A stretch of 64,000 nt of DNA from a virus (lineage: Duplodnaviria > Caudoviricetes). The notes beneath the pieces were generated by a model. The model had not been told where the DNA came from. It ran no database searches and was given only the letters and a program-made list of their open reading frames with translations. Made by a program: the position numbers and the translations under genes. Positions 22,550 to 22,708 of this stretch are shown in pieces; the stretch's first letter is position 1; every line of letters begins with the position of its first letter. The stretch lies in the IMG/VR virus record IMGVR_UViG_3300044641_005618, one strand, 5' to 3'.

Positions 22550-22708
22550 TGGGATATGTTGGAATCGAACCAACGCTCTCTCAACTGATCAGGTTGTGAG
22601 CGTGCTGTTACAAAGGCGAAGGTCGGGGATCAATCCGCCATTAGACACTCGTACTGAAGCACTCACCTGGGTAATGTGCCCAGGGCTCTACCGCTGAGCT
22701 AATTTCCC
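22550..22708 (-). ncRNA. Met-like (CAT) tRNA with a ~92-nt giant variable region
   Basis: Acceptor GGGAAAT/ATATCCC; CTGGG-CACATTA-CCCAG; T-arm GTTGG-TTCGATT-CCAAC. Confidence 0.78.

Follow-up and report, generated by a model that had tools for sequence, protein, structure and literature searches.

A conserved tRNA-shaped RNA gene with a 91–92-nt variable-region domain in the tRNA array of a jumbo lake phage

A conserved, structured and tRNA-shaped RNA gene was identified within a tRNA operon of the window, a stretch of 64,000 nucleotides that is part of the ~280 kb genome of a jumbo lake-water phage. The gene covers 159 nt (22550..22708, minus strand), exactly as delimited by a first-pass annotation made from the letters alone, and is recognized by the Rfam tRNA model and by a covariance model of its own family (R1). 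It combines a complete tRNA body with a domain of 91–92 nt that lies between the arm at the anticodon position (arm 1) and the T stem and replaces the short variable loop, and the first pass had rightly described a giant variable region of ~92 nt. The gene probably encodes a non-decoding tRNA-shaped RNA of a jumbo lake cyanophage, with a core that would serve processing and stability and with insert loops that would be the working part. All parts of the gene are given on the minus strand, and positions along it are numbered as i = 22709 - window coordinate.

The window carries a run of ~47 tRNA genes on the minus strand. The gene is flanked by tRNA-Lys(UUU) (22776-22847) and tRNA-Ser(UGA) (22411-22500) and is the second gene of an operon with the order tRNA-Lys, leader, tRNA-shaped gene, and tRNA-Ser. 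The leader (22709..22775, minus strand) contains a hairpin with a perfect 8-bp stem (UUUUCUGC-UUU-GCAGAAAA), the element GGCAGCAC and a T-arm-like hairpin (GACCG-AUUCAAUUC-CGGUC). Both GGCAGCAC and the T-arm-like hairpin recur directly upstream of the diverged copy of the gene (L046, described below), the latter with changed stem letters (GUUGG-UUUGAGU-CCGAC). The L046 leader (11946-12079) carries an extra GGGUAGA...UCUACCC that encloses a T-arm hairpin and looks like a rearranged tRNA. A scan for sigma-70 promoters between 21900 and 23300 found nothing.

Several other features of the array and its surroundings are of note. Odd anticodon loops are present in array tRNAs at 23634-23707, 23766-23841, 28331-28403, 31661-31734, 19394-19465, and 28736-28808 (minus strand): the Ile(GAU) loop CCGAUUA has C33 and U37, Val(GAC) and Glu(CUC) lack U33, both Asp(GUC) tRNAs have U37, and the Ile(AAU) loop CUAAUCA (C37) is close to the loop CUGAUCA of hairpin H2 described below. 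A second tRNA-like gene, designated chimera I in the first pass (22016-22134, minus strand), shares the T stem GUUGG/CCAAC and the D stem with the 159-nt gene, suggesting that the two scaffolds may be paralogous; chimera I differs at 9–12 of its 119 sites among close relatives, which is enough variation for a covariation test. Genes for a Thg1-like protein (33646-34413, minus strand, 90.5 bits), an ATP-dependent ligase (38625-39752, minus strand) and a short CCA-adding-type nucleotidyltransferase (41628-42365, minus strand) form a tRNA maturation and repair set adjoining the array. Lake metagenomes contain a great many relatives of the Thg1-like protein (2,997 proteins with E <= 1e-20). An open reading frame inside the array (19664-20413, minus strand, 249 amino acids) has scattered partial relatives in many unrelated viral contigs, a pattern that is typical of a mobile homing-endonuclease-like gene; it proved a poor synteny marker. 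In a more distant relative (L041, 15850-16900; virus record G004), three tRNA-like genes carry inserts of the form AAAAN-hairpin-(U)AACAGCAU or UUCAGCAU, and at least five stem-CAGCAA-...-AAAA-stem elements are present, most of them directly after a tRNA-like gene. The same relative also contains an initiator-like tRNA with a normal CUCAUAA loop.

Five alleles of the gene were found, spread over two phage lineages. The closest virus record (G001, 277 kb, 98% complete) contains a copy with five differences, the copy in L044 is the window sequence exactly, L031 carries a long form with the arm 1 loop CACAUAA, and the DNA metagenome contig L030 carries a short form of 89 nt (L030:683-771). The second lineage was reached via the neighbouring open reading frame 25250-25651 and contains a diverged copy (L046:12080-12237, identical in L047) that occupies the same slot, preceded by a tRNA and a leader and followed by a Ser-type tRNA. 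The covariance model R1, built on three close long forms, scores 204.6 bits for the window copy and 103.6 bits for the diverged copy; over all other loci and virus records searched it found ordinary tRNAs alone (<=32 bits). Close alleles disagree at 1 of 92 insert sites, compared with 8 of 93 sites in two spacers, and between the two lineages the spacers are unalignable while the flanking tRNA-Ser is identical at 59 of 90 positions. Since blocks of the insert are more conserved than the tRNA-Ser and the spacers, the gene is under selection.

The family has a narrow known distribution. Four exact or degenerate DNA patterns searched in IMG/VR matched only G001 and one coding sequence by chance (L007), the tRNA-Lys 3' end used as an anchor led to nothing beyond G001, and blastn of the insert against GenBank phages (50,697 phage records) gave no match. 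A pattern search across 185,579 prokaryote genomes gave eight matches, none of which was upheld by the covariance model. No copy of the gene was found in the relatives reached through the Thg1-like protein (L038-L043, L055-L061; virus records G002-G008), most of which have no tRNA array near that gene, and a search with a second protein anchor returned the same five proteins again.

The Rfam tRNA model (RF00005) matches the gene with 38.9 bits, above its gathering score of 29, over model positions 1–71; this end-to-end match skips ~100 nt in the middle of the gene, and acceptor, D and T arms are all present. ARAGORN left the gene uncalled. The acceptor stem GGGAAAU/AUAUCCC (5' strand 22702..22708, 3' strand 22551-22557) is followed by a discriminator A at 22550, and a CCA end is not encoded, as in the neighbouring tRNAs. 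G1 is paired with C72 in every allele, in agreement with the paired 1-72 position reported in the first pass. The window copy has one acceptor mismatch (A5.A68) where all four relatives carry a paired U68, and the stem in L046 reads GGCCUGU/AUAGGCC, with three pairs changed on both sides relative to the window. U8 and A9 stand between the acceptor 5' strand and the D arm GCUC-AGCGGUA-GAGC (22685..22699), which carries A14, G15, G18, and G19. The AGC that includes the C48 candidate and the T arm GUUGG-UUCGAUU-CCAAC were placed at 22558..22577 by the Rfam alignment. Among the close alleles the T loop reads UUCGAUU, UUCAAAU, UUCGAAU, or UUCGAGU, with variation at permissive positions only, and the T arm is weaker in L046 (UUUGAAU loop, G.U pairs). 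The folding energy of the gene by itself is unremarkable (z = -1.63).

Within the insert, a hairpin H0 (GUGC-UUCA-GUAC, 22651..22662), a hairpin H1 (22615..22639), a linker (22601..22614), and a hairpin H2 (22578..22600) follow each other. H0 remains tentative given its short helix and a model-fitted alignment, although all four of its pairs are changed on both sides in the corresponding columns of L046 (ACUU-AUUA-AAGU). H1 consists of a stem, either GGCGGA/UUCGCC or an inner GGCGG/CCG-A-CC, and a loop with the conserved AUUGAUCC. The stem portion GCGG/YCGC is kept in L046 and in the short allele, where a G.U pair has become G-C; H1 has an extra inner stem in L046 and carries a CUU triloop in the short allele, the loop being deleted. 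The linker UUUGUAACAGCACG is conserved and single-stranded, shares CGCCUUUG(U/A)AACAG between the window and L046, and is also present in the short allele; its complement occurs in G001 nowhere but on the gene's own opposite strand. H2 is an 8-bp helix (CUCACAAC/GUUGAGAG) with an internal A.A and a 7-nt loop, CUGAUCA, that is the same in all five alleles. In L046 the helix is a perfect 8 bp (C-G to U-A; A.A to U-A), and a deletion of two nucleotides (CA), carried by L030 and by contigs from the RNA libraries of runs X2 and X5, turns it into a perfect CUCAAC/GUUGAG.

This arrangement differs from the one first drawn for the variable region, a long stem GUGAG-UGCU/AGCA-CG-CUCAC that can be drawn in the window but has five of its nine pairs broken in L046, none of them compensated. 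Its 5' strand is missing from the short allele, the CA deletion weakens it, and CUCAC pairs downstream as part of H2. The cap proposed for that stem (GGCGGA/UUCGCC) survives as a possible stem of H1, with GCGG/YCGC kept, although the long stem beneath it fails; and the separate CAAC/GUUG hairpin does pair but proved to be only the top of the 8-bp H2 helix. Two further sequence matches were considered. The window contains the motif C(T/C)NACAA (as CUCACAA), but neither the CA-deletion alleles nor L046 retain it, which marks it as a chance occurrence. The complementarity of the H1 loop to the 3' end of 16S rRNA extends over only 6 nt.

Homologue covariation, one of the checks proposed in the first pass, showed that L046 keeps the overall fold. 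In the R1-based alignment, 97% of the cells are paired over the whole structure and 11 pairs are changed on both sides between the window lineage and L046 (acceptor stem 3, arm 1 3, H0 4, H2 1); all of these compensatory changes come from a single comparison of two lineages in an alignment fitted to the proposed structure. Controls with slid partners gave 32–47% paired cells and 0–1 pairs changed on both sides. Conserved flanks without gaps fix the acceptor stem, arm 1, and H2 in the alignment. How far the window and L046 agree differs strongly between segments: identity is high in the D arm (i 8-25, 17 of 18 positions), the H2 loop (7/7), the H2 stems (13/16), the AGC (3/3), the H1 loop block AUUGAUYCCC (10/14), and the linker CGCCUUUGNAACAG (10/14), and low in the arm 1 loop (3/8), H0 (2/12), and the acceptor 5' strand (3/7). 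Overall, conservation is highest in the D arm, the H1 loop AUUGAUYC, the linker CGCCUUUGNAACAG, and H2. Judging by these per-segment identities, selection maintains the shape of the tRNA core, both insert loops and the linker, and not an anticodon.

Arm 1 of the window (C-CUGGG-CACAUUA-CCCAG-G, 22666..22684) is a 6-bp helix with A33 and U37 in its loop, and the features on which an initiator-like identity had been built, a CTGGG/CCCAG stem with three G-C pairs and a CAT loop with A33, are all present there. In L046 the arm is CCCGAC-GAUUGCUA-GUCGGG, with an 8-nt loop that lacks CAU and with G-C, A-U, and C-G at the positions of the three G-C pairs; the helix is kept and three pairs are changed on both sides. 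The loop thus takes three forms among the alleles that have it (CACAUUA, CACAUAA, and the 8-nt GAUUGCUA), and the arm is absent from the short allele. U33 and a purine at position 37 are near-universal in tRNA anticodon loops, and in bacterial initiator tRNAs the 1-72 position is unpaired. The gene combines a paired 1-72 position with three G-C pairs that are confined to the window lineage, and across the alleles it shows neither a constant 7-nt loop nor U33, a consistent purine 37 or a conserved anticodon. It is considered non-decoding because the arm 1 loop varies, because the short allele is devoid of arm 1 and of the D-arm 3' strand, and because of A33 and U37. The suggestion of a decoy for the P-site or an initiation factor, built on the CAU arm, loses its basis with the restriction of CAU and the three G-C pairs to the window lineage and with the missing arm in L030.

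The origin of the CAU loop may lie close by. Arm 1 is nearly identical to the arm of the tRNA at 21746-21819 (15 of 17 bases in the window, 16 of 17 in the L031 allele), and the loop was therefore most likely copied from this neighbouring initiator-like tRNA, which would point to copying between neighbour genes and not to a conserved function. The tRNA at 21746-21819 (minus strand) is itself unusual: it is missed by ARAGORN, scores 31.2 bits with Rfam, has a C1.C72 mismatch, and carries the arm CUGGG-CCCAUAA-CCCAG with C33 in place of U33. L046 has a hairpin CCAGC-CCCAUAA-GCUGG at 12791 as well as a canonical CCAGC-CUCAUAA-GCUGG at 17073, so the C33 loop of the initiator-like tRNA seems to be conserved while its stems covary.

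The short allele lacks a segment of 56 nt (22635..22690) that comprises the D-arm 3' strand, arm 1, and H0 and lies between direct repeats of GCGG; in addition, CUU stands in place of the top of the H1 loop. The remaining 89 nt still score 36.4 bits as a tRNA and fold well (z = -2.49), and the allele recurs in three samples. In RNA-library contigs of runs X3 and X5, only four letters separate position 22618 from 22691, which looks like a splice junction. Because the identical junction stands in the DNA contig L030, it reflects a deletion in the DNA and no splicing. A contig of run X2 covers 22515-22761 and retains the insert, so an RNA library does contain the unspliced form; such libraries may contain DNA, and carry-over makes the contig compatible with the gene being transcribed or not. 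The RNA evidence consists of contigs, those of runs X1 and X3 leaving parts of the gene uncovered, and no spliced junction was found in the contigs of four RNA-library runs, which leaves room for rare spliced forms. Neither a tRNA splicing endonuclease (tRNA_int_endo) nor RtcB was found in the near-complete relative G001, and no Rfam intron or ribozyme family matched the region up to E 10. A run X1 contig has 194 different letters where the window has 389 nt (22368-22756, covering the tRNA-Ser, the gene, and a portion of the leader); the gene may be missing from some strains, or something else may occupy its position.

The alternative explanations differ in what they make of the insert. Removal of ~87–92 nt as an intron, to leave a normal tRNA of 72–76 nt, would suit an insert that sits between intact tRNA halves, and the first pass had named it as an outcome that would overturn its own reading. 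We regard it as extremely improbable: the insert is not spliced, given its presence in the X2 contig, the sole junction being the deletion allele known from DNA, the lack of tRNA_int_endo and RtcB in G001, and the lack of an Rfam intron match. Furthermore, a group I intron would have to be far longer, and the most conserved bases of the gene lie inside the insert. The earlier idea of a tRNA that carries cargo fits this evidence better. A functional tRNA (initiator, elongator Met, or Ile2) reading AUG or AUA with a giant variable arm is very improbable as well, even though no part of the cloverleaf and none of the main tertiary-contact bases is missing, the anticodon reads CAU, L031 has A37, and ARAGORN lists just one CAU tRNA in the array. 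Every copy of the window lineage has A33 and the window has U37, the L046 loop has 8 nt and no CAU, the short allele has no arm, and the G1-C72 pair is unlike bacterial initiators; the array also provides a separate initiator-like tRNA (21746-21819) and a Met tRNA (9553-9626). Decay offers another account, in which a rearranged tRNA gene (a pseudogene or recombination scar) is functionless and kept by its operon position only. The circulating 56-nt and 2-nt deletion alleles, the replacement of 389 nt by 194 other letters in the X1 contig, the acceptor mismatch of the window copy, and an arm 1 that looks copied from a neighbour would all agree with decay. It is nevertheless quite unlikely in view of the 11 compensated pairs between two diverged lineages, of insert blocks that are conserved better than the neighbouring genuine tRNA-Ser, and of a 2-nt deletion that improves H2 and does not break it.

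Two further explanations assign the RNA a partner. It might be a Y-RNA-type partner of a phage Ro60-like (DUF2828) protein, with the tRNA-like body and the insert docking as YrlA does on Rsr. G001 encodes a DUF2828 protein (79.8 bits), tRNA-like RNAs adjoining the DUF2828 gene carry AAAAG-hairpin-UCAGCAA inserts (L034), and the same handle occurs in several tRNA-like genes of the more distant relative L041. In the 159-nt gene, H1 is followed by UUUGUAACAGCAC, which resembles the hairpin-UAACAGCAU of L041, and GUCGAAUG in G001 and L031 fits the YrlA motif GNCGAAN0-1G (PMC4201824). However, the gene has no AAAAN flank and thus does not present the series of AAAAN, hairpin, and (U)CAGCAA/U seen in the tRNA-like RNAs of G001 and G004, CAGCAC becomes CAGUAU in L046, GUCGAAUG reads GUCUAAUG in the window and is absent from L046, and CAGCAA is not enriched in the array. 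The DUF2828 gene of G001 is ~73–75 kb away from the tRNA-shaped gene, the ends of the RNA form an acceptor stem and not a Ro-binding stem, its topology is unlike YrlA, and the Rfam YrlA model (RF02553) has no match overlapping the gene up to E 10. Neither a terminal stem with a Ro60 site nor a position beside a Ro60 gene was found, and we consider this partnership unlikely. A small chance is likewise given to a role as decoy or sponge towards host defences that target tRNAs or towards enzymes that bind them, in which altered anticodon-type loops on a tRNA body (a CAU-type loop with A33 and a GAU/AUC-type loop with C37) would soak up anticodon nucleases or factors of a similar kind. In its favour, phage tRNAs are known to counter tRNA-cleaving defences, partly via anticodon-loop changes (PMC10264068, PMC11555353), the H2 loop is invariant, and the array has several tRNAs with non-U33 or pyrimidine-37 loops, among them CCCAUAA in the initiator-like tRNA and the Ile(AAU) loop CUAAUCA near CUGAUCA. 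Against this, the CAU-type loop lacks conservation, one allele having lost it altogether, and we know of no nuclease target for the host of this phage. The H2 helix has 6 or 8 bp depending on the allele, which is odd for a faithful mimic of an anticodon arm.

For the preferred reading, a non-decoding RNA on a tRNA core, the following course of events is proposed. The gene would be transcribed together with the tRNAs of its operon, as its position suggests. The intact core, made up of a 7-bp acceptor stem, the D arm with G18 and G19, the T arm, and the C48 candidate, would let RNase P, 3' trimming, and the CCA-adding-type enzyme of the phage excise and stabilize the RNA, and arm 1 would be a structural strut only. 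The putative working part is the 91–92-nt variable-region domain with the H1 loop AUUGAUYC, the linker, and the invariant palindromic loop CUGAUCA of H2. The H1 and H2 loops may pair together (UGAUC/GAUCA), or H2 may pair with a second copy of itself, UGAUCA being self-complementary so that two molecules could pair. The compact platform so formed would bind a candidate partner protein or RNA. The predicted loop–loop pairing comprises 5 bp and amounts to -4.4 kcal/mol in the window and -2.5 kcal/mol in L046, where a C-G pair has become U.G. A single wobble-compatible change between the lineages thus speaks for it, and the short allele, without the H1 loop, cannot form it. That such an allele exists may also be a sign that the phage can do without the gene.

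A more specific extension, to which we give a rather low probability, would place the gene in a new family of tRNA-scaffolded regulatory RNAs of phages in which the H1 and H2 loops kiss through GAUC and the palindromic CUGAUCA, a mimic of an Ile codon and anticodon, captures one specific factor of host or phage in the course of infection. A tRNA-Ile-directed nuclease, a modification enzyme, or tRNA-Ile itself could be such a factor. If true, the kissing-loop RNA would be nature's equivalent of the engineered tRNA scaffolds and would have a defined function in trans. In any event, the gene is a clean and evolutionarily supported case of a complete tRNA body with a conserved three-hairpin domain, and its natural long and short alleles mark the parts that can be lost, which makes the needed parts and the binders of the loops testable. 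It also carries a warning for annotation, that oversized matches to tRNA models in phage arrays are not by default exotic decoders or introns.

Non-tRNA RNAs in phage tRNA clusters have been known for some fifty years with roles that are still unknown, and the classic examples are RNAC and RNAD of phage T4 ("species 1 and 2"), stable RNAs with tRNA-like ends that are matured by the tRNA processing machinery. Both are small, are encoded and transcribed within the tRNA cluster of the phage, and have no known role (PMC3014915). The 159-nt gene resembles them as a non-tRNA RNA within a phage tRNA cluster but has no sequence relationship to them (the insert had no blastn match among 50,697 phage records), and it keeps a full cloverleaf with a D arm and an arm at the anticodon position and carries its extra domain in the variable region. 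YrlA-type Y RNAs (RF02553) are found in bacteria and phages and are bound by Ro60/Rsr through the site GNCGAAN0-1G (Chen et al. 2014, PMC4201824). They are likewise non-decoding, mimic the D and T arms and tertiary contacts of tRNAs in a way that tRNA enzymes can recognize, and occur in phages that encode a Ro60-like protein, as the phage group of the 159-nt gene does. However, the ends of YrlA form the Ro60-binding stem and its "acceptor" is a closed stem–loop, whereas the ends of the 159-nt RNA form a normal acceptor stem, and the gene has no RF02553 match, no conserved GNCGAA, and no Ro60-like gene beside it.

Class II tRNAs (Leu, Ser, Tyr, and Sec) and long-armed allo-tRNAs (Mukai et al. 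2017, PMC5389517) share with the 159-nt RNA an extra variable-region structure on a standard cloverleaf. The known arms of this kind are single hairpins of ~10–25 nt on decoding tRNAs, in contrast to the 91–92 nt with three hairpins, the non-conserved loop at the anticodon position, and the losable arm of the 159-nt RNA. None of these systems, T4 RNAC and RNAD, YrlA, or the class II and allo-tRNAs, matches the 159-nt RNA in sequence or topology, and the RNA is well supported as a gene. In engineered tRNA scaffolds (PMC3401473) a tRNA body lends processing and stability to a structured RNA cargo, as is proposed here; the engineered scaffolds replace the anticodon arm, whereas the natural RNA, a product of evolution and not of design, keeps this arm and loads the variable region.
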